From an uncultured Myxococcia bacterium (GTDB lineage Bacteria > Myxococcota_A > UBA9042 > PHBI01), in assembly GCA_942493285.1 (NCBI GenBank), contig OW818691.1:8030532-8094531 (forward strand): 64,000 nucleotides of DNA, in the 5' to 3' direction. The notes under the pieces are model-generated. The model saw only the letters and a program-made list of their open reading frames with translations. It did no database searches and was not told the DNA's origin. Position 1 is the stretch's first letter, and each line of letters starts with the position of its first letter. Shown here piece after piece: positions 4,635-30,856 of this stretch. The position numbers and the translations under genes were made by a program.

Positions 4635-6983
4635 TCAGACGACGATGGTCGGAAGGGTCGGCTCGAGGATGTACCCGCCGTCGCTTCGGATCAGCACGCT
4701 CGCAAGGCCCATCTTCCGAAGGGTCCCAATAGCCGTGTAGACCCGGTCGGCCGCAGCTTCGGTGATGAGCCGCTCGCCGGGCCAGCCAGCCGCCGCGAGG
4801 TCATTCGTCGTCGCCGCGATGCCGGGACGCGCAAGCCGCAGGTCTATCAGATATGAGAGGACACGCCGCAGTGGGGGCCGCGTCTTGAGGTCGACGCGCG
4901 GGCCCCCAGGTGGCTCGAACCAGTAGGCCCCCACGCCCACCTGGAGCGTGCCCTGGGCCGACGTGGACCCGACACCCGGGAGGGCGTCGAGTCGTTCACG
5001 GACCTGGCCCAACGTGCGTTGGCGCCCGGCGTTCATCGCCAGTGCCATGGCCTCTTCGAGCAGGGTTCGCGCCAGACTTGACTGGCCGCGGAGCCGAGCG
5101 ATTTCGGCGCGGACGAGGTGGACCTCGACGGTCGCCTGTTGATCACCGACGAGCCGCGCGAGCCCGTCTGCTTCCATGGCCGAGGCCTCCGCCAAACCCA
5201 TGTCGCCGCACGACACCGCGCAGGTGGCTTCCCGGGTCAGGATCTTGGTTCTCAGGAGGGGATCGCCGATGCGCACTGCCAGGTCTCGAGCTTGCGCAAA
5301 GCGCAAGAGCGCCGTTTCATGGTCGCCGCGCTCGACGGCGGCGAACGCGAGATTGGTGACGGCCAGCGTTTCGATTCGCAGGGCGCCACAGAACCGCGCG
5401 GCACCTAGCGCTTCGAGGTACGAGGTGTGTGCCTCTTCGACCCGGCCCGTCATGAGAGCCGCCGAGCCATAGTGGAGCGCTGCCCAGGCCGCGAGGACTG
5501 CAACGCCCTTCGCCTGTGCGGCGACCTCTCGGCACAGTACCAGCGCGCGCTCCCCGCGGTTGGATTCCCGGTCGATGGCGCTCATGACGAGAGAGGCCTC
5601 GAGTTGGTCGCGCTCACTGCCGAATTTCCTGGCACATTCGATGAGTGCAAGGGTGTCGGCCTCGGCCTCGGCGAGTCGACCCTGCAGGTAACGAAGGCGT
5701 GCCCTCGCGTTCATCAAGCGCACGACGCCGCGCCCGCTCATGTCACTCTCGGCCGGACCCATGGCACGTCCGAGCGCACGGCTCAGGATAGCATCGGCGG
5801 CCTCGCCGTTGCGGCCCGACAAGTGGCAGGCGAGTGCCAGGGCAAGCGGCACGAGGTGTTCGAGGTCACCGCTCGCGAACGCGTCGTCGTGTGCGGCGAA
5901 CAGGTCGTCGGCCAGTCGTTCGAAGGTGGCCCGGGCCCGGCTCGGGTCACCATCGAGCAGGTCGGGCAGGGCGGCCTCACACTCGGCCGCGAGCACTTCG
6001 CGATGCCGTTCGTGGTCGGACTCGTCCTGGAGCGATGCTGCAAAGCAGCGCACGGCGTCGTAGAGGCGAAAACCCTCGGCCACGAGTGACGACGCCACGA
6101 GGCGCTCGAGACCCGCGACGGTGTCCACGAGGGTGCGGCCGGAGAGGCGCGTTGCGAGGTCGAGGTCGAAGCGACCGGCCACGGTCGAGAGGCGCACGAG
6201 CAGGTTGCGGTCGGGCAGGGTGAGGCGGTCGAAGGACCAGGCGACCGTATCTGCAAGGCTGTGGTGGCGAGGCTCGGCGTCGACCGTCTCACGTTTGAGC
6301 GCAAGCAGGGTCGACGGTGCGCTCGTGAGGTGCTCGGCCAGGTCGAGGTGGGCGTGACTCGCGTACAGCTCGATGGCCAGCGGTAGGCCGTCGAGGCGGG
6401 CGACGAAACGTGTGTCCAGGTCGGCCACCAGGTCCGGACGGCGTGCCCCGACACAGCGCTCGAAAAGGGCCTTCGCGTCTTCCACGTTCAGGCCGCCGAG
6501 TGGGATGACCTGCTCCACCGCGAGGTCGAGTGGGCGGCGCGAGGTCGCGAGCCAGACTGCATCGGGACACGCCTCGAGCCAATCGGCGAGCCTGCGTCTG
6601 AGCGCAAAGGCGTCGTCGCGCGCGACATCGAGCCCATCGGCAGCGTCGAGCACGGTCAGGGTCCGTCCACGGGCCGCGAGTCGCTCGGCGAAGGTGTGTC
6701 GGTTGGATGCGCCCAGAGCGATGGCGATGGCGTCCAGCGCCGCGAGCAGGTCTCTACGCGGGCCGAGGTCGACCCAGGCGACCCCACCCGGAAAGCAGTC
6801 GCCCAGGTTCGCCGTGACCGCGCGTGCGAGCGTCGACTTGCCGACCCCACCCGGGCCGACGAGCGTCACGAGTCGCCCCGTTTCCGACAGCACCGCGGCG
6901 CGTGTGCGGTCGAGCTCCTGGCGACGGCCGATGAGCGGAAGGACCATGGTCGACCCTTCGCAGGTCGCCCTCGCCGCGGTCAA
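4635..6983 (-). CDS. STAND-type NTPase (P-loop/NB-ARC-like) with TPR-like helical repeats and a C-terminal OmpR/PhoB-type winged-helix DNA-binding domain; putative transcriptional regulator
   Basis: Walker A GPGGVGKSTLAR near the N-terminus and Walker B-like LTVLDAADG. The long Ala/Leu-rich middle region is TPR-like. The C-terminus LRRVLSYLIDLRLARPG...AAADRVYTAIGTLRKMGL...LIRSDGGYILEP matches the trans_reg_C wing motif (RLRkKl...i.tvrg.GY.l). Confidence 0.7.
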   Translation of the reverse strand: MTAARATCEGSTMVLPLIGRRQELDRTRAAVLSETGRLVTLVGPGGVGKSTLARAVTANLGDCFPGGVAWVDLGPRRDLLAALDAIAIALGASNRHTFAERLAARGRTLTVLDAADGLDVARDDAFALRRRLADWLEACPDAVWLATSRRPLDLAVEQVIPLGGLNVEDAKALFERCVGARRPDLVADLDTRFVARLDGLPLAIELYASHAHLDLAEHLTSAPSTLLALKRETVDAEPRHHSLADTVAWSFDRLTLPDRNLLVRLSTVAGRFDLDLATRLSGRTLVDTVAGLERLVASSLVAEGFRLYDAVRCFAASLQDESDHERHREVLAAECEAALPDLLDGDPSRARATFERLADDLFAAHDDAFASGDLEHLVPLALALACHLSGRNGEAADAILSRALGRAMGPAESDMSGRGVVRLMNARARLRYLQGRLAEAEADTLALIECARKFGSERDQLEASLVMSAIDRESNRGERALVLCREVAAQAKGVAVLAAWAALHYGSAALMTGRVEEAHTSYLEALGAARFCGALRIETLAVTNLAFAAVERGDHETALLRFAQARDLAVRIGDPLLRTKILTREATCAVSCGDMGLAEASAMEADGLARLVGDQQATVEVHLVRAEIARLRGQSSLARTLLEEAMALAMNAGRQRTLGQVRERLDALPGVGSTSAQGTLQVGVGAYWFEPPGGPRVDLKTRPPLRRVLSYLIDLRLARPGIAATTNDLAAAGWPGERLITEAAADRVYTAIGTLRKMGLASVLIRSDGGYILEPTLPTIVV

Positions 6984-7017: not shown

Positions 7018-8853
7018 TCACGGCGCCTCGTCGCCCCACAGGTCGGTGGTGCCAAACCAGTATTGGACCGCCTGCGGCCGCATCGTGAACTTGAGCGGAA
7101 GGCTCCGCTCGATGCAGCTCAAGTCGAGCTCGGCCCTCGGGTCGGCGATGAACTGGACGAAGAGCTCCATGCCACACGAGGTCGTCGGGTCGTCGATGAG
7201 CTGGCCCTGGCCGAGCACGCTGTGGCCATGGCCCGGGAGCTCGAGGTAGTGCTGATGCTCAGCGGTCAGGTGGTCGACGATGCGGCGCGCGTAGGTCGGG
7301 GGTGTGGCCGGGTCATAGTCGGCGTTCATCGCCAGGATAGGCAGGTCGCTCTTGAACCAGCGCCCCGCGAGCGGCTCGGTGTAGCGCGGCCAACCGGCGG
7401 TCTGCCAACGCGCATTGTTCGACACGCCGCGGCACGAACGTGTGCCGGCCCAGCGCTCGGCGAGCTCTTCCGGGCTCGGGTCGGCCGGCTCCCACATCTC
7501 GGAGATCAAGATGTTGATCGCCAGCGGGAACGAGTAGCCAAGCGTCCCGTCGGCCTGGAAGGGCGGGCCTGGCGTGGGCACGGATCCCGACATCGCACCC
7601 GGGTCGAAGCCGAAGTTGCGCTCATAGATTTTGCGCACGAAGGTCACATCGTCCGGGTCGCAGCGCAGGTAGCGTCGCACCAGGGCGGGGACGCCGCGGC
7701 GGGCACCGTAGTGGAACATCATGATGCCGAGGTTGGTGCGCAACAGGAGCACGTCGGTCTCGGGGTCGGGGGTGATGGGGCAGTGGCCGGCGGCGACCTG
7801 GACGAACAGCTTGCCGAGGGCTTCCCACGGGCCGAGCTCGGGGCTGAACCGGGTGCTGCAGTCGGGGTCGGTCTCGCAGTTGGCGAGTATTCGTTCGGCC
7901 TCGGCATTCTCCCAGAGGTCTTGCTCCGACAGGAAGCAGTCGTCCGCGCTGCAGATCGAGTCGAAGACGACCGCGTCGACGAGCCCGCTCGGGTCGCCCG
8001 CATCGTCGAGGGCGTGGGCCAGCAGGAGGTAGCGGTTGGCGAGATAGGTGCCGTACGAGACGCCCAGGAACACGACTTCGTCGGTGGCCGGATGGACTGC
8101 CTGAACGAGGCCGACGAGGTCGCGGGCGGCCTGGGTGGTCGAGAAGTGGGCGAGCTTGTCGGCGCCCCAGGTCTGCACCACCGAGTCGCGGCAATAGGGC
8201 CATTCGCCTTCGGTGACCTGGACGCCACCTTGTGAGAACGGGGCTTCCTGGGTGGGGCAGCCGAGCCGGGTCGAGCGTCCTGTCCCGCGGTGGTCTGGCA
8301 TATAGATGTCGAGGCCCGGGTCGCGGCGCGCCAAGACGAGGGCGGTGGCCTCTGCGTCTGAGCCCGCTTGTCCGGGGCCTCCCATGAGGAACCACATCGC
8401 GCGGCGCGGGGCGTCCGGTTCGCCCGGTGCGACCGGTGCGACCTGATTCTGGCCTCGCAGGCGCTTCACGAACAGCGAGATGGACTCGCCGTCGGGGGCC
8501 TTCCAATCGAGCGGGACCTGGACCTCGGCGCACTCGACACGCGGGTCGTTTGCCCCGACGATGGTGTTGCATGGCGTCCATGTGACGGTCGGTGCGGGCG
8601 CTACCATCGGGTCGACCGGGAGCGCGACCTCGACGTCACCATCGGCAGTCGTATCCGAGGCCTCGAGCCCGTCGTCATCGGGCGTGGCGTTCGTTTCGGG
8701 CGTGTCGCCCATTTCCAGCGTGTCGCCCGTCTCTAACGCGTCGTTCGAATCGGGCGTGTCCGAGCTTCGTTCGGCATCGGCGCAACCGCCAAAGAGGACC
8801 AGGGCAATGAGGAGTCTTCGCATGCCCCGAGCATCGTTGCCGGCTCGGCCCAA
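7018..8853 (-). CDS. Secreted alpha/beta-hydrolase lipoprotein, peptidase S33 (prolyl/tripeptidyl aminopeptidase)-like
   Basis: Signal peptide with lipobox (MRRLLIALVLFGGC). Asp/Glu/Thr-rich linker. GxSxG nucleophile elbow GVSYGTY and an overall alpha/beta-hydrolase pattern with C-terminal His. Confidence 0.7.
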   Translation of the reverse strand: MGRAGNDARGMRRLLIALVLFGGCADAERSSDTPDSNDALETGDTLEMGDTPETNATPDDDGLEASDTTADGDVEVALPVDPMVAPAPTVTWTPCNTIVGANDPRVECAEVQVPLDWKAPDGESISLFVKRLRGQNQVAPVAPGEPDAPRRAMWFLMGGPGQAGSDAEATALVLARRDPGLDIYMPDHRGTGRSTRLGCPTQEAPFSQGGVQVTEGEWPYCRDSVVQTWGADKLAHFSTTQAARDLVGLVQAVHPATDEVVFLGVSYGTYLANRYLLLAHALDDAGDPSGLVDAVVFDSICSADDCFLSEQDLWENAEAERILANCETDPDCSTRFSPELGPWEALGKLFVQVAAGHCPITPDPETDVLLLRTNLGIMMFHYGARRGVPALVRRYLRCDPDDVTFVRKIYERNFGFDPGAMSGSVPTPGPPFQADGTLGYSFPLAINILISEMWEPADPSPEELAERWAGTRSCRGVSNNARWQTAGWPRYTEPLAGRWFKSDLPILAMNADYDPATPPTYARRIVDHLTAEHQHYLELPGHGHSVLGQGQLIDDPTTSCGMELFVQFIADPRAELDLSCIERSLPLKFTMRPQAVQYWFGTTDLWGDEAP

Positions 8854-8891
8854 CGCATCCGAAACTTCCCAAAATCACCGGTCGCACCCGT

Positions 8892-11129
8892 TCAGGAAGG
8901 CGGCCCGCCCCGTCGAACCATCACCGTCCGCAGCTCGGACGTATAGTGCCCGCCGGGACCGCGCAGCCAACACTGTTCTGGCGCGGGCCACATCTCCGAC
9001 AACGTCAGCGTCTCGCCGCGCCCGAGCGACCAGAGCGCCAGCGCCATCGAAATCCCCGACCACCAGTCGATGAGGATCGGCTTCGGCTCGCTCTCCACCC
9101 GCATGAACATGAAACGCGGCACGTGCTCAACCGCCAGCCCCGAAACCCTGGCCAACGCCCCCGCGACATCACCTGCCGACTTCACCTCGTCGGGCTTCAA
9201 TACGAACCGCCGCCGATGCACGACGAGCCCCCCGTAGCTGAGCCGCGGCAACGCCTCGACCGGTCGCCAGTCGGGCCCGGCGAGCCAACTCCCGAGGTCG
9301 AGCGTCGCCACCGAATACACAGGCGAGGCCTGATGCAGCCGCGCCGTCCGCGTCAGCGGCGCGACGTCGATCATGTTGGCCACATCGACCACATTGGCCA
9401 CATTGGGCACATCGGCGATCTCATTCATATGACTCGGCACGACAAACGCGAGGCCTTCCCCACTCGCCCCTCTCGAATAGACCGCGAGCTCCGCCAGCGT
9501 CCCGCGCCGCTCGGGTGGCTCTTTGGCCAGCCCCGACAACTCGAGCCCGACTGCACCCAGGTCCACCCCGACCGAGATGAAGCTGTGGTCCCAGCTCACC
9601 GGGAAGGCCGCCTTCGCCGGCGCCGTCAGCCCTTCCAAGAACCGCGCGCTCGCCGCCACAACCTCATCGCATGCGGCCAACGGCGGCAACAGACACCCGG
9701 TCAGGTGTGGAAGGTGATGCGCCTCTGCCAGAATGAACCTCGTTTCGTGTGCAGTCGGGTCAGCCGCCACCATGAAGTCCGGGTTCGCGTACGCCGTCCC
9801 GACCTTCGCACCCAGCCCACCAAGCAACCTTCCGACCTCGGCCGATACCTCGAGCCGCGCCTCGACCTCACCGGCCGCGATGACCCGATCGACCTGTGCC
9901 CGCAGCTCAGTCTTGATCCCCTTCAAGGCCTCACGAATGACCCGCGCTTCAGCCGGCGCCGCCAGCTCCAACGCCATCGGGTCTTTCGCTATCTCGGCCA
10001 GCACCTCGCGCCACAAGACGGGCTCATCCCTCGAGCTCTCCCACGTGCGTTCGAACCACGCGGCGAACGTCAGCCGCTCGGCCAGCTGGTTCAACAACGA
10101 CAGCTCGAGAAACGGCCCCGCCACGGTCTGCAGCTCCGCCGTCCACACCTTCGGAAACCCGATGACCGTCCCCGTCCGATCGGCCTGCTCATGCAGCGGC
10201 GTCCGGCTCGCATAGAACTCACCTTCATGCCGCGACGGCGCCTCACCGAGCATCGCCGTCAGCTCGGCCTCATGCGCTGCCAGCATCGCCCGCCTTTCAT
10301 CGGGCTTGCCAGCGGTCGCCTCGAACGCCGCGCGCCCCTCTTCGAGCCGCATGAAACGCCCAATCCAAGCCTCCCGCTCCGCCGACTCCGGCGCCGACCT
10401 CAGCACCGCCACCGCCGCCCCGACCGGGTCGACGAGCCCGCTCGGCAAATAATCCGGCCCGACCACCTCGGGCTCTCCCGACCGCTTGAACCCACGCCCG
10501 CCCGGCTCCCACACGACACCATCCGCATCGGCCCCCGGCGCCCGCCGAAACGCCCTTTCAATCCCCGGCCACAACCCCGCCGCGACGAGGTCCTCGACGG
10601 CCGTGCTCAACAGCTTCTCCACCAACCACTGCGTCGAGAACGCGCGCCGCCCAGCCTCGACCGGCAACACCGTCCCGGCATCGAAGTCGACCTCGAAGCT
10701 CCCCGCGGCCACCGCCCCAAAGAAGCTCGTCGAGTCGTTCTTCGCCGTCAGCCGCTGCAGAAACCGCCACAGGACCCGCTCACGTTTCTTGTCCTGCGCG
10801 TTGCGTCGCCCGGCCTCCGCATGTGCCCGCCACCCATCGAAGTTGCGGTCCACGAGTGGTGCTGACGTCATCAACGCCTCACGCGCGCCGGGATCACCGA
10901 GCGCCTCGAAAAGCCGCCGCCGCTCGTCCGCGACCCGCCCCGCATCCCCTGGGTCGGCCATCCCATCGAACGCCGCGACCCCTGCCATCCGCTCGACCGG
11001 AAACCCCGTCGCGCGCAGCAGAAAATACGGAAAGAATGTCCACGATCCAGGTCCCGACATCTGTCCCTCGTCGCTCGCCGAACGTGTCCGGCTCATCAGC
11101 GCCCACTCACTCGCGCCCCGACTGCTCAA
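8892..11129 (-). CDS. Lanthipeptide dehydratase (LanB) family protein with the N-terminal glutamylation domain only; the elimination domain is truncated after about 55 residues (small-LanB / PEARL-like)
   Basis: N-terminal WTFFPYFLLRATGFP matches the LanB f..vlRtPllP motif. RLTAKNDSTSFFGAVAAGSF matches the conserved RxxTPFGLFSSVGIGSF segment of SpaB/NisB. Near the C-terminus VPRFMFMRVESEPKPILIDWW matches the VRHFFMRYRDPKPHIRLRF start of Lant_dehydr_C, but the ORF ends about 55 aa later. Confidence 0.7.
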   Translation of the reverse strand: MSSRGASEWALMSRTRSASDEGQMSGPGSWTFFPYFLLRATGFPVERMAGVAAFDGMADPGDAGRVADERRRLFEALGDPGAREALMTSAPLVDRNFDGWRAHAEAGRRNAQDKKRERVLWRFLQRLTAKNDSTSFFGAVAAGSFEVDFDAGTVLPVEAGRRAFSTQWLVEKLLSTAVEDLVAAGLWPGIERAFRRAPGADADGVVWEPGGRGFKRSGEPEVVGPDYLPSGLVDPVGAAVAVLRSAPESAEREAWIGRFMRLEEGRAAFEATAGKPDERRAMLAAHEAELTAMLGEAPSRHEGEFYASRTPLHEQADRTGTVIGFPKVWTAELQTVAGPFLELSLLNQLAERLTFAAWFERTWESSRDEPVLWREVLAEIAKDPMALELAAPAEARVIREALKGIKTELRAQVDRVIAAGEVEARLEVSAEVGRLLGGLGAKVGTAYANPDFMVAADPTAHETRFILAEAHHLPHLTGCLLPPLAACDEVVAASARFLEGLTAPAKAAFPVSWDHSFISVGVDLGAVGLELSGLAKEPPERRGTLAELAVYSRGASGEGLAFVVPSHMNEIADVPNVANVVDVANMIDVAPLTRTARLHQASPVYSVATLDLGSWLAGPDWRPVEALPRLSYGGLVVHRRRFVLKPDEVKSAGDVAGALARVSGLAVEHVPRFMFMRVESEPKPILIDWWSGISMALALWSLGRGETLTLSEMWPAPEQCWLRGPGGHYTSELRTVMVRRGGPPS

Positions 11130-11138
11130 CCGCCCAAC

Positions 11139-12518
11139 TCAATCGCGCCCTTCACCGCGCTCCTCGAGCGCCCGCTTCAGCGTCCCCTTGAAGATGTCAC
11201 TGCCCACCTTCTCGAGGAACTTCCACCGTCTGAGCTCCACCCGCCGCTCGACCTCGGCCGGCGTCAGCTCGAGGCTCGTCACATGTTTGCCCACCTTCGA
11301 AAAGACATGCACCCGATGCTTCGGCCCGAGCACCACGACCGTGTCCTTGTGGTCGTCCCGAAAGAACCGCCCCTCACCCGCGGCCAGCGCATCCGCCACC
11401 GCCAAGGCCGTCGGCCGCTCTCCGCTCTGATGGCGCTCCTGCGCGTGTAAGGTCCTGTAATCACGGCTCTTCAGGACCCGCAGCACATCCCCACGCAGCC
11501 GCGTCAAGAGCTGCATGACCGGCTCATCGAGCTCGAAGTTCCCACCTTGGCGATGCGCCAATGCCGCCCGCCGCCCGAGCGCATCCACCCGCCCACGCGT
11601 CGCTCGTAACACCTTACGAAACGCCTCCGCCGGGCTCGTAGCGTCACTCGTCGCCGCCACCTCGGCGATGTCACCAACCGGCATGCCAATCACATTGAGC
11701 CGCATCCGCCGCGTCACCCCACCACGCGAATCGGGCTCGGTCGTCTCGACGATCTGCAGCGTCAGCGCCACCCGCTCCTCACGCGACCGGACCACGAAGT
11801 CTCGCGGCACGAGCCCGACCACGACCTGCCCCAACAGCCGATACGCCAGCCGCCCGCGATGGAACTCCGGCGACATCCCCGCATCGAGCTCGTGCGCATA
11901 GATGACCAGCGCCAACACCTCGGGCGAGTCCCCGAACAGGCGATCCACCCGCGGCTCCTGCCGCGCCAGACACAGGTTTGGAAAGCTCACCCACTCGGGC
12001 TTTCCATTGGCTGCATATCCCGCAAATACCTCGGTCGGCTTGCCCGGCCGCGAGTAGACCGACTCGGGCTGGTCGGTGAAGAAGCAGTAGACCGCCCCCT
12101 CGTTGAAGCTCGCGTGGTCGCGCTGCGCCACCTTCAGGTAGTCCCGCAGGTGCGTCACGAGGGCCGCCGCCCGAGCCTCAGACCGCCCCAGCACCAGCGG
12201 CACCAGCGTCGCCTCGGCGGCCAGCTCCACGGTCTTCGCGCCGACCCCCTCCTCGCGCGCAACCTTGGCGACCAACGCATCGATCGCCCGATAAGCCGCC
12301 TCCGCCAGCTCGGCCGCGCTTGTATTCGCAGCTCGACCCGGCCCGCGATCCCCAGACGCCCGCTCCGCTCGGACATCAACCGTGCGCATCGGCGCCTCGA
12401 CCGCACCCACGCCTTCGCCCGTCGCCCCCGCTGCAATCCCAGCCCCAGGGCCCTTCTTCTTTCTTCGCCGCCGCCGCTTTCGCGGCACCTCGGTCGGGCT
12501 CGGGTCGGTCTCACTCAT
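11139..12518 (-). CDS. Hypothetical protein (about 460 aa) with a poly-basic N-terminal tract (RKRRRRRKKKGPG); function unknown
   Basis: ORF 11139..12725. The start at 12518 (MSETDPS) is preceded by a purine-rich SD-like GGGGGA, but alternative upstream ATGs exist at 12575 and 12725. The stop is 10 bp upstream of the LanB-like start, on the same strand. Confidence 0.55.
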   Translation of the reverse strand: MSETDPSPTEVPRKRRRRRKKKGPGAGIAAGATGEGVGAVEAPMRTVDVRAERASGDRGPGRAANTSAAELAEAAYRAIDALVAKVAREEGVGAKTVELAAEATLVPLVLGRSEARAAALVTHLRDYLKVAQRDHASFNEGAVYCFFTDQPESVYSRPGKPTEVFAGYAANGKPEWVSFPNLCLARQEPRVDRLFGDSPEVLALVIYAHELDAGMSPEFHRGRLAYRLLGQVVVGLVPRDFVVRSREERVALTLQIVETTEPDSRGGVTRRMRLNVIGMPVGDIAEVAATSDATSPAEAFRKVLRATRGRVDALGRRAALAHRQGGNFELDEPVMQLLTRLRGDVLRVLKSRDYRTLHAQERHQSGERPTALAVADALAAGEGRFFRDDHKDTVVVLGPKHRVHVFSKVGKHVTSLELTPAEVERRVELRRWKFLEKVGSDIFKGTLKRALEERGEGRD

Positions 12519-12651
12519 GGCGGACGAACGTAATCCCCCCGCGTCCGCTTGAACAGGCCTGCCCCGTGCGCCCATACTGTGACCAGGCCGGCGCACCACG
12601 CCCGCCAACACTCGCAGCCGCGACCCCACGCCCCTACACCAAGGACCCGCC

Positions 12652-13725
12652 ATGGTGGCCCGCCTCGTCGAGACAGGATTCCGCGCCCAGAAGACCGCCC
12701 AGGCCCTCATCGCCGGCGTCTTCATGCGGGTCTTCCATCAGTTCCTATCAGCGAACCTCCCGCTCCCGAGCGCCGCCGAACGTAAAGCCCTCCAGCGCCG
12801 CTTCCGCACCCTGCTCACCGATGAGATCGACCACGTCCGCGCGGGCCGCTACCCGGAAAAGGTCCTCTTTCAGACCAACCTGCTCGAAACCCTACGCGCC
12901 CTCCCCGACGGCGTCATCGAGATGCCACGTGTCATCCTACGCGCCCGAAAGAACCGCTACGACGACCTGCCCGACCACGCCACCCGGCCAAATCCGACCG
13001 ACCTCTCACGGTTCCCACGCTACTACCGCCGCAACTTCCACTGGCAGTCCGACGGCTGGTTTTCTGACGAGTCCGCCAAACGTTACGACGCCGGCGTCGA
13101 CCTCCTCTTTGGAGGCACCACCGACATCATGCGCCGCATGATCGTCCCCGCCGTCGCCGCCTCCATCGCCAACACCTCTTCCCCTCGTGTCCTCGACATC
13201 GCGACCGGCACCGGCCGCTTCCTGGCCCAGCTCAACCTCGCCGCCCCGACCGCGCGCCTCTACGGCCTCGACCTCTCGCCCCATTACCTCAAGTTCGCCC
13301 GCACCTCGCTCGCCCATCTGGAAGACCTCTCGCTCGTCGCCGAAAACGCCGAGTCGATGCCCTTTGCCGACCAGACCTTCGACGCCGTGACGTCGGTCTT
13401 CCTCTTCCACGAGCTCCCTTCAGACGCCCGCCGCAACGTGGTCCGCGAAGCCTTCCGCGTGGTCCGCCCGGGCGGCCTCTTCGCCGTCCTCGACTCGGCC
13501 CAGCTCGACTCCGCGCCCGACATCGCCTTCTTTCTCGAGTCCTTCCCGAAGCTCTATCACGAGCCCTACTACAAGGGTTATCTACGCGACCCGCTGCCAT
13601 CTCTCCTCGCGGAGTGCGGCTTCGAGATCGTCGCCGACCGCGACCACTTCGTGTCACGCGCCGTCATCGCGCGCCGCCCCGCGTCCCCCGAGTCATCCGC
13701 GTCCCTCGAGTCAGCCGAATCATAA
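12652..13725 (+). CDS. Class I SAM-dependent methyltransferase
   Basis: Motif I VLDIATGTGRF, post-I acidic LYGLDLS, motif II/III region FDAVTSVFLFHEL...RPGGLF. About 150-aa N-terminal extension before the Rossmann fold. Confidence 0.8.
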   Translation: MVARLVETGFRAQKTAQALIAGVFMRVFHQFLSANLPLPSAAERKALQRRFRTLLTDEIDHVRAGRYPEKVLFQTNLLETLRALPDGVIEMPRVILRARKNRYDDLPDHATRPNPTDLSRFPRYYRRNFHWQSDGWFSDESAKRYDAGVDLLFGGTTDIMRRMIVPAVAASIANTSSPRVLDIATGTGRFLAQLNLAAPTARLYGLDLSPHYLKFARTSLAHLEDLSLVAENAESMPFADQTFDAVTSVFLFHELPSDARRNVVREAFRVVRPGGLFAVLDSAQLDSAPDIAFFLESFPKLYHEPYYKGYLRDPLPSLLAECGFEIVADRDHFVSRAVIARRPASPESSASLESAES

Positions 13726-14870
13726 TGCCGACCCCGATCACCACCGACACCCTCATCGTCGGCGCCGGCCCCTCGGGTCTCGCCGTCTCCGCTTGCCTGA
13801 AACACGCGGGCCACCCCCACCTGCTGCTCGAACGTGAGCCGACGCTGGCGTCCACCTGGCGCCGCCACTACGACCGACTCCACCTCCATACGGCCAAACA
13901 GTACAGCCACCTCCCGCATCACCCGATGCCGGACCACTTCCCGACCTACCCGTCTCGCGAACAGGTCGTCGCCTACCTCGACGAATATGCCAAAGCCCTC
14001 GAGCTCGAGCCCCGGCTCGGCGTTGCAATCACCCGCGCCGACTACACCTCCAACCACTGGCACCTCGAAGCCGCCGACACGACCACCTATCGCGCGCGCC
14101 ACCTCGTCGTCGCGACCGGCTACAATGCGACGCCCGTGACCCCGACCTGGCCCGGCCTCGACGCCTTTGCCGGCTCAGTCCTCCACTCGTCGACCTACAA
14201 GAACGGCGCCGACTTCGCAGGCCAATCGGTCCTCGTCGTCGGCTCTGGCAACTCGGGCGCCGAGATCGCCATCGACCTCTGGGAACACGGCGCCCGCCCC
14301 GCCATGGCCTTTCGTAGCCCCGTTCACGTCGTCCCTCGCGACGCCTTCGGCCTGCCATCCCAGACGCTGGCCATCGCCATGTCCCACCTCCCCTCCAAGC
14401 TTGCCGACAAGCTCTCGCTCCCGCTTCGCGACTTCGTCATCGGCGACCTCTCCAAATGGGGAATCCATCGCCCCAAAGCCGGCCCGGTCGAGCTCCTCGA
14501 GACCCGCGGCCGTGTCCCGCTCATCGACATCGGCACCATCGCCCTCATCAAACAAGGGGCGATCACCGTCTTCCCAAACATCTCGAAGATCGAACCATCG
14601 GCTGTCCACTTCGTTGATGGCCGCACCCAGACCTTCTCAGCCATCGTGCTCGCCACCGGCTACAAGACCAACCTGCGCAGCTGGCTCAACCCGCCGTCGA
14701 CCGCGCTGGACGACCGCGACCTCCCGAGGGTCCACGGCAAGGACGCTGGCCACCACCTCTACTTCCTCGGCTTCCGCAACCCGACGACCGGCAACCTGCG
14801 CGAGATCCACCTCGAAGCCAAACGCATCGCCGCATCCATCACGAAGGCTCCGCTCCATGCCCGGGTTTGA
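13725..14870 (+). CDS. Flavin-containing monooxygenase (class B FMO-like)
   Basis: FAD GxGxxG (GAGPSG) at the N-terminus, NADPH GxGxxG (GSGNSG) in the middle, and the FMO-identifying FxGxxxHxxxY motif (FAGSVLHSSTY). The ATG at 13725 overlaps the methyltransferase stop (ATAATG). Confidence 0.8.
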   Translation: MPTPITTDTLIVGAGPSGLAVSACLKHAGHPHLLLEREPTLASTWRRHYDRLHLHTAKQYSHLPHHPMPDHFPTYPSREQVVAYLDEYAKALELEPRLGVAITRADYTSNHWHLEAADTTTYRARHLVVATGYNATPVTPTWPGLDAFAGSVLHSSTYKNGADFAGQSVLVVGSGNSGAEIAIDLWEHGARPAMAFRSPVHVVPRDAFGLPSQTLAIAMSHLPSKLADKLSLPLRDFVIGDLSKWGIHRPKAGPVELLETRGRVPLIDIGTIALIKQGAITVFPNISKIEPSAVHFVDGRTQTFSAIVLATGYKTNLRSWLNPPSTALDDRDLPRVHGKDAGHHLYFLGFRNPTTGNLREIHLEAKRIAASITKAPLHARV

Positions 14871-15918
14871 CGCGGCGATCTGGCGCCACTGGCACCCGGT
14901 CCTCCTCGACCAGGACCTCGGCACCCGCCCCAAATCCGTGATGCTCCACGGCCAAGAGCTCGTGCTCTACCGCGCCCCATCGACCAACTCCGTCCACGCG
15001 CTGCACAACGTCTGTCCCCATCGCCGCGCTCGCCTCTCGGACGGCTGGGTGCAACCCCATGTCGCCGGCGCCCGCCTGGTCTGCCCCTACCACGGCTTCC
15101 AGTTCGCCCCCGACGGCCGCGGCGAGAGCCCCGGCACGCCGTCCGTCAAGCTCAACTGCACCTCGTTCGAGACCCGGCAGGCCTACGGCGCCATCTGGCT
15201 TCGTGCCCGCCCGACCTCCACCAACGACCCACAGGCCCCCGCCTCAGAGCCGACCGACTTCCCCGCCCTCGGCCTCCCCGGCTTCACCCAGGTCGCTTCG
15301 ATGAGCCACCTCATCGAGGCCCCGCTCGAGGTCGTCGTCGACAACTTCTGCGAGGTCGAACACACCCCGACGACCCACGCCCTCTTCGGCTACGACGCCG
15401 CGTCACTGCCCGACGTTCGTGTCACTCTCGAGTGCACCGACACAACGGTCCGCGTCGTCAACGAGGGCCGCCAGAAACCAATCCCTCGCCTCATCGAGCG
15501 GGCTTTTGGCATCCACACGGGCGACACCTTCATCGACGACTGGACGGTCCACTTCTCGCCCGTCCATATCGTCTACGACCAGTGGTGGCGCGACCCCACG
15601 ACCGAGGCCCCGCGGCCAATCCGCGTCCACCTCGGCGTCTTCTTCGTACCCGTCGACAACGACCAGACCCGACTCTACACCTTCGCCTTCAGCAACCGCC
15701 CACCGTCGCTCCTCGACCCGCTCTTGCGACCTCTCCTGCGCCGCATCGTCAACCACGAAGTCGTCCTCGACCAACGCCGGATCGAGCGCCTCGCCGACAC
15801 CAACCCCGACCTGCGCGGCACGCGCCTCGGCCGCTTCGACGCCGCTCTGCGCGAACACCGCAAGCGCATCGAACACATCTACCGTATGAGGCGCAACGAC
15901 CCCGGGTCTCCCGGCTGA
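14857..15918 (+). CDS. Rieske [2Fe-2S] non-haem iron oxygenase, alpha-subunit-like (VanA/PaO-type, single-component architecture)
   Basis: Rieske CxH...CxxH (CPHRRARLSDGW...CPYHGFQF) and a mononuclear iron ExxHx4H motif (EVEHTPTTH). The start at 14857 (MPGFDAAIW) overlaps the FMO 3' end by 14 nt; the longer ORF-track version (14167) is an antisense/overprinted extension. Confidence 0.75.
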   Translation: MPGFDAAIWRHWHPVLLDQDLGTRPKSVMLHGQELVLYRAPSTNSVHALHNVCPHRRARLSDGWVQPHVAGARLVCPYHGFQFAPDGRGESPGTPSVKLNCTSFETRQAYGAIWLRARPTSTNDPQAPASEPTDFPALGLPGFTQVASMSHLIEAPLEVVVDNFCEVEHTPTTHALFGYDAASLPDVRVTLECTDTTVRVVNEGRQKPIPRLIERAFGIHTGDTFIDDWTVHFSPVHIVYDQWWRDPTTEAPRPIRVHLGVFFVPVDNDQTRLYTFAFSNRPPSLLDPLLRPLLRRIVNHEVVLDQRRIERLADTNPDLRGTRLGRFDAALREHRKRIEHIYRMRRNDPGSPG

Positions 15919-25260: not shown

Positions 25261-28200
25261 TCAGCCCGGGTCCTTCGGCCGACGCACACGCGCGCGCTCC
25301 GTCGGAGGCTCCTCGCTCGGCTTCACCGTCGCTCCGCCGACCCCACCCAGCAGCGCCAACAGCTCCCGCGTGAGGGCCGTCGTCTCGTCGAGGTTCTTCG
25401 TCGCCGCCCGCGCCACCGGGATCAACGCGTCGCGCAACACCTCGTTCTGATGGGCGAAGAACGCGCTCAGGTCCGGCGCCGCCACCTCGACCTTCACGTC
25501 CGGGACCCGCACCATCGGCTGCGGAACCGCCGGTGGTGTCGCCACGGCCGCCGCCTTCGCCGCCGTCCCAACCGGCGCCGCCCCCGACGGCGCCACTCCT
25601 CCGCTCACCGTCAATGGTCGCCTCAACGCCTCACGCAACGACGCGATCGCCTTACCCAACTCGCTCACGGCCTCGGCCATCCGCTGCCCCGTCTCGTCGG
25701 CCGCGCCCACGCCCACGCCTGCGCCCGCGCCCGCGCCCACGCCAGCGCCTGCGCCCGCGCCCACGCCAGCGCCCGCGCCCACGCCCGCGCCTGCGCCCAC
25801 GCCCGCCTCCGCCCTCGCTCGGTCGACCCGCTCGGCTTGCGCCTCTTGCGCCGCGACCACCTTCTGCGCCGCCTCGACCAGCGCCCCACGAATCGACCCC
25901 AGCTCACGCCCCATCAAAGACAACTGGCCGGTCACCCGCGTCGCCGGGTCATCCTCCTTGCCGCCGAGCTGGTTACGCCGCACATACTCGCCCTTGATGG
26001 CCTCCCAGCGCTCCTTCTCGGCGCCCTTCAGCGTCCCGCGCAATTCCTTGAGCTTCAAGATATTCGCTTCCGCCCCGGTCGTCAGCGTCTGCGCCTCGCC
26101 CTGGTAATGCCCGTCCAACAACCGCTCGAGCTCGTCGGGCGTCAGCGCCGCCACGACCTTCTCGGCCAGCTTGTTCATGTTGCGGTAGCTGCCCTGCAGC
26201 TTGAAGGGCGGCTCCGTCCGGTAAGCATCCGCAGTCGCCGCCGACGCGATGTACTGCAGGTTGACCGCCAGCAGGACCTCCTGGCACCGGATCAACAGCT
26301 TGAAGATCGAGAGAATCTCGCTCAGCTCCGCCGCCGAGTACCCGTGGCTCAGGTCGGTCGTCGCCACCTGCTCGCCCTTCGCCATCCGGATGAGCTTCAG
26401 AATGTCCCCCGCGTCGCGCGCCGCCAGCGGCGCCAACACCGAGTTCGCCGTCAACGAGTTCTCCAGATAGCTCAGTGCAAAGGCCTCCTTCTTGCCGTCG
26501 AGAATATCGCCAAGGTTGTAGATGTCGGCGCGATTGGCCAACATATCCGGGATCTTGAACGCCTCGCCGCCCTCGGTATAGGGGTTGCCCGCCATGACCA
26601 CACAGAACTTGCGGCCACGCATGTCGTAGGTCTTGGTCCGCCCCCGCCACACACCTTCGATCTTACGCTGCCCGTCGCACAGCGAGATGAACTTCTGCAG
26701 GAACTCCGGATGGGTGTGCTGGATGTCGTCGACCAGCAGCATCACGTTGTTGCCCATCTCGAGCGCAAAGTTCAGGCGTTCGATCTCCTGGCGCGCCGTC
26801 GCGTTCGGCGCCTCCTGCGGGTCCAACGACCGCACATCGTGTCCCAGGGCCGGCCCATTGACCTTCACGAAGACCATGCCGAGTCGGCTCGCGACGTACT
26901 CCATGAGCGTCGTCTTGCCGTAGCCCGGCGGCGAGATGAGCAACAGGAGCCCCATCAGGTCGGTACGCTTCGCGTCGCCCGCGGCGCCGATCTGCTTGGC
27001 CAGGTTCGCCCCGATGAGCGGCAGGTACACCTCGTTCAACAACTGGTTGCGCACGAAGCTCGACAAGATCTGCGGCTTCACCTCGTGGATGCGCAGCTCA
27101 CGTTTGCGCCGCTCGATGAGCCCGGTTAGCAGGTCTCGAAACGCCCGATACCGCGGCACATGATAGGCCCGATAGCTCGAAATCCGAGACAACAGCTCGT
27201 CGAGCCGCACCTCCAACTTGCGCTCGACGACCCGCCCATGCTGGCCGAGCAACCCGTCGACGCTGCCTCTCACCCGTGCCTGGCTCGTCTCTCGCGACAG
27301 GCCCGGCGTCACACACACGACGGCCGCCTCGAACCGATAGGGCCCGAACCTCTCCGGCTCGATGGCCGCGACCGCGTCCACCCAGCTCTTCGCCAGCGCC
27401 AGCCGCCCGGCGACATCCCCATCCAGCGCTCTCAGCTCGTCGTCGAGCCGCGGATTCTCCCGCCGCACCTTGTCGACGAGCTGGTCGCTCTCGCCAGTCG
27501 TCGTGAAGTAGACCGGCTCACGCCCGAGCTCAACGACCAGGAACCGCGTAGCCTCGTCGACCACCGCCTGCACCGCCAAGGCCGAGATCCCGATCTCACG
27601 ACACCACTCACCGACCTTCGCCGCGATCTCTGCCGCCAGCGTCGCCCCGCCCGTCGCCAGGGCCGAGCTCGCGCCCGTCGCCCGACTCGCCCCCAGATGC
27701 GCCAGGCTCACGGCTCGCCGCTGCGCAAACTTCGCCGCCGCCGTCTCGCCCTGATGGTGCCACCACAGAGCCGCCAGCGCCCTCGAGTCAGCCGAGAACC
27801 GTAGCCGCCCGGCCGTCTTCATCATGTCGATGAGCACCGCCAGGATCTTCGTCGCGTCCGCATCATGCAGCCCACGCTCATAACCTTCGCTGTACCGCTC
27901 GTTGGCCACCCCACGCACGAGCTCGAGCAAGGTCTTGCCCTCGCCGCGCTCCGCCGCGAGCAACTCCGCCATGGTCGGCGCTTTCGGCACCCCCAGCTCG
28001 GCGTCCAGAAAGATGCTCGCCGCCAGGAACTCCGCCCGATAGACCTCACTCGTCTCGCTCACCAGCGTCTGGTCCCAGAGCGCCCGCGACTCCACCACGA
28101 CCGGGTCGTCGACCGCCTCGTAATAGTCCGTTCCGGTCAGGTGCAGCGCCAGCCCACCGTCGCGCGGCACGACCGTCATCTCGAAGCTCTGCGTGTTCAC

Positions 28201-30852
28201 GAGAAAGCGGTGCCGCCCGAACTTGATGATGTCGGCGCCGTCTTCGAACAGCTCGAGCTTGTCGCGCAACCCGCGCAACCCGTCTTGTTTCGCGGCCTTG
28301 AGGCGCGAGCCGACCTCGTCGCTCTTCACCGAGTCGCCGAGCTCCAACAGCTGGTCGGCCAGCTGCCGCAGCTTTTGCACCATCGCATCGGCCGCGAAGT
28401 ACGCGTTGAGCTCGTCCTCGCTCTTGAAGGTCCGCGACCGCCTCACGACCCCTTCGATGATCCGTTTGCTCGCCTCGACGAGGTTGGCGACCTTCTTCTG
28501 CTTCTGGTCGAGTAGCGCCTGCTTCTTCGCCGCGAAGGCCTCGTAGACCTCCTCACGTTTCCCCTGCAGGTCTCTGACGAAGACCTCGTGCTCCGAGAAG
28601 CGCCCCTCGAGCTCTTCGAGCTGTACCATGAGGCGCGACAGCCCGGTGTCACACGCCTCGGGTGTCTCGCTCATCGCGAGAGCGGTGCCTGTAGCCTGCC
28701 CGAAGAGCCGGAACTGCGCTGCGAACTCGGCCTTGTCCTCCGCCTGCCCGAGCTCGCTCTTGCGGTTGTTGATCTCGGCCCGCACCCGGTTCATGTGCCC
28801 GAAGGTCTCGGACAACCCTTCGAGGATTTGTGTCCGCACGGTCGGGTCGTCCACCTGCAGGGTCGAGATGGTCTCGCTCAACACCTCCAGACCACGCGCC
28901 AGGTCTTCGATGCCCTTGCGGGTCGGCTCGAGGTCGCTGACCTTCTTGGCCTTCACCCCGACCCCGAGGATCTCATCGAGCTTCTTGCCGAACGGCGCCA
29001 ATGCGTCGTTCTTCGACAAGAAGACAACAGCCGCCTTCGACACCGCGTCGAACAGCTCGCTTGTCTTCTTCTCGAGCCCGTCGATGGCTTTCAGGTCGAT
29101 GTAGCGCACCTCGCGCAACGAGATGAGATGACCCCGCTGTGACCGCAGCGCGCTCATCCCCAGCATAAACCTGTCGATGTCCTTCCAGTGCTGATAGTCG
29201 GTCTTCTTCTCGAGGTCCGCCTGGCTCGCCTGCGCCTCCTTCAACGCGGCTTCCGCACGCGACTTGTGCGCCAGGACCTTTTCGAACTCGTCGATGATCT
29301 GCTCGACGTTCTGGCGGATCTGCACCAGCACGCTCGCCAGGTCCTCACACTCCTCGCGGCCAAGCCAATGGAAGCTGTCCACCATCCGCGTCTGGTGGCT
29401 GACGATGTCCTCGAAGCGTTCACGCGACGGCTCTGGGTGCCGCACCCGCGCGACCAGAGCAAAGCTCTCCGAGATCCCACGCACCAGGTCCGCGTTGCCG
29501 ACCTTGCTCAGAAAGCTCCCGTCCCCCTTCTGGCTCGCCGCAAACTCGGGCGAACAGAACGGGGTCCTCCACACCTGCACCGGGTGCACCCGCACCGCCT
29601 CGTGGCCGACGTGCCGCAAGACAACCATGCGCCCATCGGGAAACAAGCTGTACCCGTCACACGCGATGGGGTTCTGCACCTCGCGCCGAATCAGGTTGTA
29701 CGGAAACAGCAGATAGTCGCCCGTGCCACGATGGTGAAAGACGTAGAGCACGTCCTCGCCGTTGGGGGCCGAGATCTGGCGCTTGAACTCGAGGTCGCTG
29801 ACGTCGAGCTCGAAGAGCTTGTACTCGCCCGTTTGCAAGTAGTAGCCGCCAGGAAACAAAATCCCCTGGTCCTCGGGCAGCGCCACACACGCCTGTCCGA
29901 TGGCGTCGATCCGCACCACCGACTTCGCCCGCGTATTGTAGACGAGGTGCCGATAGGCGGTCTCCCGAAATGGTTTGATTCTCAAGAGAATCAGCGTCCC
30001 CACCTCGGCCCAGCTCAGCTCCATGTCGTCGAGCGACTGGTTCTTGTCCTCGACCGGCTCCGCGTAGATCCCGCGCCCCGACTCGGTATTGTCCTCGACC
30101 TTGATGGTGAGGTCGCCGCCCAACGTCTCGACGAAGACCTTGTCGCGCACCGAGATGTGCGGGAAGCGCCCACGACGCTGGTCTTCACGCACCGACCGCG
30201 TCCACGCGAATGAGTGCGAGCTCGGATAGACGTGGTCGCGTTCCCCTCGATTGTCGAGATAAGTCGCGAGTCCATCCGGGGTCAGTTGCCAGCGCAGGAC
30301 CTTGATGTCGCGATAGGTCGCGCCCACCTGGAAGACCGCCAACAGCTTGTCGGTCTTACGCAACTGGATGAGGCGTGTGTCCTTGTAGTACTTGCGCAGC
30401 TCATCGAATTCACGCTGGAAGTTCGCTCCCGAAAACAGCCCGGCGTTGACCTCGTTCGGGTTCACCTCCGAGAAGTCGAAGCCTCCGACCTGGCCTTCCG
30501 ACGCCTCGACTTCCGCGAAGCGGTGCATCGTGAAGACGTCGCTCAGCGTGAACTCGGTCCTCAGCCCCAGATAGACCGTGTAGCCGACGAGCAGGTGGTC
30601 GCCGAGCGCCACGACATCGGCCGGGATGCAGTTGTTCTCGGTGCGGATCCGCTCGTTGCCGATGACCTGCAGCTCGGTCCCACCGAAGGTCGCCTTACGC
30701 CGCTCGTTGAGGCGCCCGGCGCGATTCGACAGCTCGTCAGCGAGCCCATCGAGCCGCCGCTTGAGGACCTCATAGTTGCCGGTCGCCAGCGCCGAGTCGA
30801 CCTCGGTCTTCGCTGTCTTGCCGGTGCTGCCGGTGCTGGGAGGAGTCGCCAT
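25261..30852 (-). CDS. Giant (1863 aa) multidomain protein with a MoxR/AAA_5-type ATPase domain, long coiled-coil regions and a Gly-Ala dipeptide repeat; function unknown
   Basis: Walker A SPPGYGKTTLMEYVA, Walker B MLLVDDIQ, and sensor-1/AAA_5 signature VVMAGNPYTEGGEAFKIPDMLANRA (compare atqNP..g...Lp.AL.DRF). The large N-terminal region (about 520 aa) and C-terminal region are unrecognised. A (GA)n/(GVGAGA)n tract precedes the C-terminus. It lies 4 bp downstream of the flotillin gene on the same strand. Confidence 0.75.
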   Translation of the reverse strand: MATPPSTGSTGKTAKTEVDSALATGNYEVLKRRLDGLADELSNRAGRLNERRKATFGGTELQVIGNERIRTENNCIPADVVALGDHLLVGYTVYLGLRTEFTLSDVFTMHRFAEVEASEGQVGGFDFSEVNPNEVNAGLFSGANFQREFDELRKYYKDTRLIQLRKTDKLLAVFQVGATYRDIKVLRWQLTPDGLATYLDNRGERDHVYPSSHSFAWTRSVREDQRRGRFPHISVRDKVFVETLGGDLTIKVEDNTESGRGIYAEPVEDKNQSLDDMELSWAEVGTLILLRIKPFRETAYRHLVYNTRAKSVVRIDAIGQACVALPEDQGILFPGGYYLQTGEYKLFELDVSDLEFKRQISAPNGEDVLYVFHHRGTGDYLLFPYNLIRREVQNPIACDGYSLFPDGRMVVLRHVGHEAVRVHPVQVWRTPFCSPEFAASQKGDGSFLSKVGNADLVRGISESFALVARVRHPEPSRERFEDIVSHQTRMVDSFHWLGREECEDLASVLVQIRQNVEQIIDEFEKVLAHKSRAEAALKEAQASQADLEKKTDYQHWKDIDRFMLGMSALRSQRGHLISLREVRYIDLKAIDGLEKKTSELFDAVSKAAVVFLSKNDALAPFGKKLDEILGVGVKAKKVSDLEPTRKGIEDLARGLEVLSETISTLQVDDPTVRTQILEGLSETFGHMNRVRAEINNRKSELGQAEDKAEFAAQFRLFGQATGTALAMSETPEACDTGLSRLMVQLEELEGRFSEHEVFVRDLQGKREEVYEAFAAKKQALLDQKQKKVANLVEASKRIIEGVVRRSRTFKSEDELNAYFAADAMVQKLRQLADQLLELGDSVKSDEVGSRLKAAKQDGLRGLRDKLELFEDGADIIKFGRHRFLVNTQSFEMTVVPRDGGLALHLTGTDYYEAVDDPVVVESRALWDQTLVSETSEVYRAEFLAASIFLDAELGVPKAPTMAELLAAERGEGKTLLELVRGVANERYSEGYERGLHDADATKILAVLIDMMKTAGRLRFSADSRALAALWWHHQGETAAAKFAQRRAVSLAHLGASRATGASSALATGGATLAAEIAAKVGEWCREIGISALAVQAVVDEATRFLVVELGREPVYFTTTGESDQLVDKVRRENPRLDDELRALDGDVAGRLALAKSWVDAVAAIEPERFGPYRFEAAVVCVTPGLSRETSQARVRGSVDGLLGQHGRVVERKLEVRLDELLSRISSYRAYHVPRYRAFRDLLTGLIERRKRELRIHEVKPQILSSFVRNQLLNEVYLPLIGANLAKQIGAAGDAKRTDLMGLLLLISPPGYGKTTLMEYVASRLGMVFVKVNGPALGHDVRSLDPQEAPNATARQEIERLNFALEMGNNVMLLVDDIQHTHPEFLQKFISLCDGQRKIEGVWRGRTKTYDMRGRKFCVVMAGNPYTEGGEAFKIPDMLANRADIYNLGDILDGKKEAFALSYLENSLTANSVLAPLAARDAGDILKLIRMAKGEQVATTDLSHGYSAAELSEILSIFKLLIRCQEVLLAVNLQYIASAATADAYRTEPPFKLQGSYRNMNKLAEKVVAALTPDELERLLDGHYQGEAQTLTTGAEANILKLKELRGTLKGAEKERWEAIKGEYVRRNQLGGKEDDPATRVTGQLSLMGRELGSIRGALVEAAQKVVAAQEAQAERVDRARAEAGVGAGAGVGAGAGVGAGAGAGVGAGAGAGVGVGAADETGQRMAEAVSELGKAIASLREALRRPLTVSGGVAPSGAAPVGTAAKAAAVATPPAVPQPMVRVPDVKVEVAAPDLSAFFAHQNEVLRDALIPVARAATKNLDETTALTRELLALLGGVGGATVKPSEEPPTERARVRRPKDPG
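25700..25815 (-). repeat. Hexa/dodecanucleotide tandem repeat encoding a (G-A/G-V-G-A) tract within the giant ATPase gene
   Basis: gcgcccacgcc(c/a)gcgcctgcgcccgcgcccacgcc periodicity on the plus strand. Confidence 0.75.
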
Positions 30853-30856
30853 GGAC

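Follow-up and report, generated by a model that had tools for sequence, protein, structure and literature searches.

The LanB enzymes have been described in three arrangements. In LanB-A, the domains for glutamylation and elimination are fused, and in LanB-B, the split form, the elimination protein is separate. LanB-C consists of the peptide aminoacyl-tRNA ligases (PEARLs), which are without an elimination domain and depend on ATP; further conserved residues serve them to phosphorylate the carboxylate of the substrate (PMC11962472; PMC11212132). The gene described here resembles this third group. It is the one LanB-like gene in a stretch of 64,000 nucleotides (called the window) from an uncultured Myxococcia bacterium (contig OW818691.1, positions 8,030,532 to 8,094,531). 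Judged by alignments, predicted structure, and analogy, its product is probably a complete, functional, stand-alone PEARL-type (LanB-C) ligase that would depend on ATP and aminoacyl-tRNA.

In the PEARL TglB, the key residues include Asp542, Glu564, a His that replaces Asn283 of glutathione synthetase, Glu801, and Arg803 (PMC11117183). Glu801 and Arg803 are required for the phosphorylation step (PMC11962472; PMC11117183) and Arg10 is essential (PMC12945691), while Glu564 is non-essential (PMC11117183). It has been proposed that the PEARL lineage derives from ATP-grasp ligases, which need no tRNA (PMC11117183).

Like PEARLs such as TglB of Pseudomonas syringae, BhaB, the AmmB enzymes, and SinB1/B2, the window protein is a stand-alone glutamylation-like domain, carries no elimination domain, and has a similar C-terminus. 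It also shows ATP-grasp-like structural echoes and has aligned equivalents of R10, D542, E564, H566, E801, and R803 of TglB. Unlike these PEARLs, it is about 100 residues shorter (722 versus ~810-850 aa), the winged-helix segment of the RiPP recognition element (RRE; RiPPs are peptides made by the ribosome and modified after translation) is deleted, and its score lies under the threshold of the Pfam family PF04738. Its gene is found in Myxococcota, without a scaffold peptide gene, and is paired with a gene for a 400-aa protein, here called X. TbtB (PDB 6EC7/6EC8) and GodF (PDB 9JHQ) have a separate PF14028 partner in the thiopeptide and goadsporin clusters, whereas none was found in the window. 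LanB-A proteins (NisB, MibB, MadB, SpaB) have an elimination domain of ~280 residues (PF14028) together with LanC and LanA genes, none of which is present in the window. ATP-grasp ligases such as glutathione synthetase and glutathionylspermidine synthase have no detectable sequence similarity to the window protein, and are without the tRNA-binding N-terminal half.

The reading frame and its C-terminal end

Read mechanically, the open reading frame (ORF) occupies 8892-11129 on the minus strand, with 745 codons from a TTG at 11129. Translation probably begins at the ATG at 11060 (MSGPGSW), which has GAGGGA just 5' of it. The resulting 722-aa product is identical to an NCBI-derived database protein (P0001) and carries no annotation in any source. 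Residue numbers refer to these 722 residues, unless they are given as ORF residues in the 745-codon numbering. The GC content by codon position is 0.70/0.52/0.82 in a window of ~68% GC. This pattern matches genuine genes of the same genome, so the ORF is real.

A sequence-only reading of this DNA took the protein for a LanB that keeps just the first ~55 residues of its elimination domain. The ORF exists, and so do the three motifs quoted at that time: FFPYFLLRATGFP and TSFFGAVAAGSF are both in the translation, and VPRFMFMRVESEPKPILIDWW stands at ORF residues 670-690, with the stop 55 residues later. The assignment of VPRFMFMRVESEPKPILIDWW to the start of the elimination domain fails. When a profile was built from the last ~120 residues, it aligned to TbtB 732-840 (E 8e-16) and GodF 744-848 (E 1e-9); both are solved proteins that have no elimination domain. 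In these alignments PRFMF...EPKPILID lies opposite GIPTRSFVRAW...ARKPLFLDLANP of TbtB and GLPAEIYVAQ...RKKPQWVHFEHP of GodF. Through bridging homologues, VPRFMFMRVESEPKPILIDWW maps inside PF04738, to positions ~623-643 of 649. Weak alignments put the same element at ~660-703 of MadB and up to ~667 of NisB, within their glutamylation domains.

A fused elimination domain, as in LanB-A, would be expected to match Lant_dehydr_C (PF14028). Pfam gave no such match in the whole protein, and the isolated C-terminal 76 or 119 residues matched no Pfam family at E<=10, Lant_dehydr_C included. The similarity to an elimination domain was thus not reproduced with any hidden Markov model (HMM). By these alignments, VPRFMFMRVESEPKPILIDWW does not open an elimination domain but belongs to the C-terminal subdomain of the glutamylation/PEARL domain.

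Evidence that the protein is complete is provided by its homologues. A database search found 23 of them, 565-767 aa long, most covering at least 95% of the query and all stemming from independent genomes and metagenomes; the relatives in the genome scan are metagenome-assembled genomes (MAGs) of Myxococcota or "Deltaproteobacteria". In a 21-sequence alignment, 17 of the 21 homologues stop 0-6 residues past the column of R716. The last 70 residues are also the best conserved, with 66% mean pairwise identity versus 54% overall. A profile search of 1.84 billion representatives returned 3582 relatives, and for 829 of these E was <=1e-30. Most of the best 150 are 700-890 aa long, and the end of the profile coincides with their own C-termini. 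A median of 10 residues follows the column of R711 in the relatives, and the window protein ends 11 residues after it.

Since the end point is common to the homologues and the C-terminus is the most conserved part, which includes catalytic-site residues, a recent truncation or a sequencing indel is effectively excluded. Likewise, no frameshifted remnant can hide in other frames downstream, because an intact hydrolase gene fills that DNA; the ~30 larger ORFs of the window that were scanned gave no match either. The sequence-only reading had offered a truncation or a natural enzyme as alternatives. The former falls away, and the latter, a natural enzyme that uses aminoacyl-tRNA without elimination, gains support. 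The same reading correctly held that no elimination domain is encoded nearby (PF14028 is absent from the protein, from the DNA downstream, and from the ~30 scanned ORFs) and that the next gene codes for an unrelated hydrolase.

The relationship to LanB proteins becomes visible through intermediate sequences. Pfam Lant_dehydr_N (PF04738; 649 positions, gathering threshold 28 bits) matches the window protein at E 4e-4 and 19.1 bits, over ORF residues 79-169 only, so that by score this is a partial match under the threshold. The model is matched by 15 of 21 family members, with a best E of 5.6e-10. Three bridging relatives (P0104, P0119, and P0185) match it end to end at 104-119 bits, and through them the model spans residues ~55-675 of the window protein. 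Among PDB sequences, a single-sequence search and a close-family profile found nothing, while a broader 42-sequence profile matches solved TbtB at E 3.4e-34, the C-terminal stretch scoring best. For the LanB proteins, a column without a label tabulates the figures 19.0 (TbtB), 17.1 (MadB), 17.0 (GodF), 16.9 (MibB), and 14.9 (NisB). NCBIfam and PADLOC scans gave no match for the PEARL-type protein or for X. The fold and homology of a LanB glutamylation domain were tested for and found, and the profiles indicate that the homology is genuine but remote.

Predicted active-site residues and the winged-helix segment

Conservation was counted in 170 sequences aligned to the family HMM. R16, D428, E446, H448, E709, and R711 share columns with R10, D542, E564, H566, E801, and R803 of P0218, an 814-aa "lantibiotic dehydratase" from Pseudomonas protegens/idahonensis whose residue numbering is identical to that of TglB. 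D428, H448, E709, and R711 are conserved in 165-167 of the 170. The position of E446 holds E or D in 144, a variability that fits Glu564 of TglB being non-essential. Residues that belong to the tRNA side are conserved to a similar extent: R103 in 165, K107 in 163, and N108 in 164 sequences.

E709 and R711 lie in the last conserved strand, and the presumed "stub" is thus predicted to supply two catalytic residues. This terminal ExR is invariant here, whereas TbtB and GodF align only as far as SEMLPGP and not over the ExR strand. That they stop before it fits the loss of ATP dependence in LanB-A and LanB-B. The window protein has both the ATP and phosphorylation residues and the carboxylate-binding Arg expected of a PEARL, and no PF14028 match was found in the protein, its C-terminal fragment, ~30 window ORFs, or the genes listed beside homologues. 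Going by these alignments, the gene is a member of a divergent, unannotated Myxococcota PEARL (LanB-C) clade, new within a known enzyme class.

Another property of this clade is a short interval between G176 and L205. It measures 26-31 residues among the clade's 18 members and no fewer than 50 in 128 of 136 relatives, where the median is 70. In the relatives the segment resembles winged helix-turn-helix (wHTH) domains of the ArsR/Lrp type; from this resemblance and its position, we infer that it is the RRE of LanBs and PEARLs. Because so few residues stand in its place, the RRE helices appear to be deleted in the window's clade, in which no winged-helix RRE was found. Published work suggests that the RRE may be dispensable in PEARLs, and SinB1/B2 of sinefungin are PEARLs that act directly on small molecules, with no scaffold. 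The loss fits a substrate without a leader, although it does not pinpoint one.

In a distant clade (L003 7995-12304; also L004 and L014), two paralogous LanB-like genes form a tandem and overlap by 4 nt. In L003 the upstream copy has 669 aa and is without the wHTH segment, and the downstream copy has 767 aa and includes it.

Table 1. Positions of the PEARL-type gene, its motifs, and neighbouring genes in the window
Feature	Position	Strand	Remarks
PEARL-type (LanB-C-like) gene, 722 aa	8892..11060	-	ATG 11060; mechanical ORF to TTG 11129
N-terminal motif FFPYFLLRATGFP with R16	10998..11036	-	Aligns to TglB Arg10; R in 157/170
RFLQRLTAKNDSTSFFG motif: R103, K107, N108, G115	10716..10766	-	Common to LanB glutamylation domains (TbtB YVARAAVKTSPYSTF)
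Deleted RRE-like winged-helix segment (predicted)	10446..10535	-	28 residues versus median 70 in relatives
D428 ... E446-A-H448	9717..9779	-	Aligns to TglB Asp542, Glu564, His566 (ATP-grasp-like Mg/ATP site)
Motif VPRFMFMRVESEPKPILIDWW of the sequence-only reading	9060..9122	-	Residues 647-667; K660/P661 invariant
E709-L-R711 in terminal strand HYTSELRTV	8928..8936	-	Aligns to TglB Glu801/Arg803; E and R each in 167/170
Gene X, ~400-460 aa, polybasic N-terminal tract	11139..12521	-	Start codon uncertain; constant upstream partner of the PEARL clade
Lipoprotein-type TAP-like alpha/beta hydrolase	7018..8823	-	Pfam Abhydrolase_1/TAP-like; ~68 nt after PEARL stop
Methyltransferase, FMO-like flavin monooxygenase, Rieske/VanA_C oxygenase	12583..15918	+	Divergent from the X-PEARL pair

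Proposed reaction and alternative explanations

What the analysis shows is the fold, the homology, the conserved length, the aligned residues, and the lack of an elimination domain. How such an enzyme would work, with ATP and tRNA, is predicted by analogy with TglB and BhaB, and any statement on its substrate is a prediction too. D428, E446, H448, E709, and R711 would make up an ATP-grasp-like pocket in which ATP and Mg2+ are bound. The carboxylate of the substrate would be held by R16 and R711 and then phosphorylated. Next, the amine of an aminoacyl-tRNA would attack the acyl phosphate, and the extended product would be freed once the tRNA ester has been hydrolysed. As the native C-terminal subdomain, the ~75 residues at the C-terminus would contribute two of these residues to catalysis. 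Since there are no RRE helices and no conserved precursor nearby, the substrate would more likely be a small molecule, or X from the neighbouring gene, than a leader-bearing RiPP precursor.

The short LanB homologue is no damaged dehydratase, and its C-terminal "stub" is the very part that holds the Glu and Arg of the predicted, PEARL-defining ATP site. Interest in PEARLs at present concerns the formation of peptide bonds without ribosomes and the labelling of proteins at the C-terminus. The analysis flags a Myxococcota clade below the Pfam threshold, with no leader-binding domain, no scaffold peptide, and a constant partner X. A compact PEARL without an RRE and with a new type of substrate, if confirmed, would be a useful lead for genome mining and enzymology.

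Several points weigh against a PEARL. The window protein is sub-threshold in Pfam, so that its class assignment depends on family profiles, bridging sequences, and predicted structure. P0218 was taken as an orthologue of TglB because of its genus and because six residue numbers coincide, rather than through a named sequence of TglB. The window has no substrate peptide, no tRNA gene, and no recognisable tailoring set of the pearlin type, although the absence of a scaffold peptide does not exclude membership, because scaffold-free PEARLs for small molecules are known. Finally, the more distant clade does not conserve the genomic context. Distant family members occur in unrelated contexts, such as the tandem paralogues of L003, or beside genes for a 2-oxoglutarate (2OG) oxygenase, a HAD protein, and a glycosyltransferase in L006.

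One possible variant, though an unlikely one, is a PEARL that has become leaderless. In this model the clade dropped the RRE and works with or on X, as a two-protein, tRNA-dependent system unrelated to RiPPs or to nonribosomal peptide synthetases (NRPS). The carboxylate of X itself might be extended or amidated, or the polybasic N-terminus of X might recruit tRNA or substrate.

Another model, less probable again, keeps the LanB/PEARL fold but gives up the tRNA. The protein could then work together with X as an ATP-grasp-like ligase for a non-peptide substrate, or could assist X in a structural or regulatory role. The lost RRE, the constant coupling to X, and the lack of a precursor or tRNA gene nearby are in keeping with it, as is the proposed origin of PEARLs from tRNA-independent ligases (PMC11117183). 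However, R103, K107, N108, and other residues of the tRNA side are as conserved as those of the ATP site, which argues for retained use of aminoacyl-tRNA, and X is also found without a LanB-like gene.

It is slightly less probable still that the protein belongs to the split class I dehydratases (LanB-B), as TbtB and GodF do. Such an enzyme would use Glu-tRNA to glutamylate Ser/Thr of a peptide, and an elimination protein encoded elsewhere would complete the dehydration. In LanB-B, a separate PF14028 protein and a RiPP precursor belong to the cluster, but the window and related loci yielded neither. When ~30 ORFs over the 64-kb window were scanned with Pfam, no PF14028, LanC, NRPS, or other RiPP machinery came up, and no LanC, azoline-forming enzyme, or precursor peptide was seen among these ORFs or next to homologues. 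When the 25-130-aa ORFs at 3-20 kb of the window were compared with seven related loci, no conserved precursor peptide emerged; the matches were shadow frames of large genes. The residues of the PEARL ATP site are kept, including the terminal ExR outside the TbtB/GodF alignment, and the leader-binding RRE of split LanBs appears to be deleted.

The idea that a full-length LanB recently lost ~200 elimination-domain residues by truncation or frameshift (as a pseudogene or through a sequencing indel) retains hardly any probability: the visual resemblance of the motif to the SpaB_C element FF.RY.DP.PH.RLR has no HMM backing, and against it stand the lengths and common end of the homologues, their well-conserved last 70 residues, the missing Lant_dehydr_C match at the C-terminus, and the intact downstream hydrolase with its normal codon bias.

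Protein X and other neighbouring genes

The pair of X and PEARL genes is present in the window and in five other loci (L001, L005, L012, L016, L017). The family of X comprises 57 proteins, and the named sources are Myxococcota or "Deltaproteobacteria" MAGs. These proteins have a conserved core of ~370 aa and a conserved C-terminal helix, followed by a variable tail. X matched no Pfam, NCBIfam, or PADLOC family, and no fold. Three loci (L008, L009, L010) have X alone, so X was rejected as an obligate partner in one direction; since X also occurs without a LanB-like gene, any dependence between the two runs one way at most. In the MAG JACKFA01, X (on L008) and the LanB-like gene are on different contigs. 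There two overlapping ORFs on L015 7080-10171 (N-part 7080-9425, C-part 7955-10171) share the LanB-like homologue between them, a split due to a frameshift, to pseudogene formation, or to an error of assembly.

On the other side of the PEARL gene, the gap before the hydrolase has no terminator-like site. Only the closest relative, L017, conserves the hydrolase, whose membership of the PEARL unit is therefore doubtful. Directly downstream of the hydrolase, at 4635-6983 on the minus strand, is an NTPase of the STAND type (NB-ARC/NACHT P-loop) that carries TPR repeats at its C-terminus. The order of hydrolase and STAND genes is kept in L017.

In L001, L005, and L017, the X-PEARL pair has genes for the methyltransferase and the flavin-containing monooxygenase (FMO) beside it, joined in L001 alone by the Rieske gene. 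L016 has none of the three, which were thus rejected as obligatory partners. They may be tailoring genes, or the arrangement may be synteny alone. Their ORFs overlap (for instance, 13614-14870 with 14167-15918), so that the true starts are uncertain. From 15.9 to 18.3 kb there is no ORF with convincing codon bias, and no tRNA gene was found anywhere in the window.

Farther away, at 25261-30894 on the minus strand, lies the gene for a giant protein of 1877 aa, in which DUF3686 ("ATPase involved in DNA repair", E 5e-190) is combined with DUF7902 and another AAA domain. An ORF of 775 aa without a Pfam match comes next and overlaps it by ~38 nt.

The GC skew of the plus strand is about +0.04 to +0.09 at 7-9 kb and -0.2 to -0.31 from 9 to 18 kb, so that the composition changes abruptly, with the boundary near 8.9 kb. 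At the third codon position, the minus-strand genes for PEARL and X prefer G (+0.41 and +0.38), and those for the hydrolase and the STAND protein prefer C (-0.26 and -0.19). The plus-strand genes for methyltransferase, FMO, and Rieske oxygenase are strongly C at this position (-0.50 to -0.54). In the five-gene block, these preferences point to a strand-specific bias rather than one of gene orientation.
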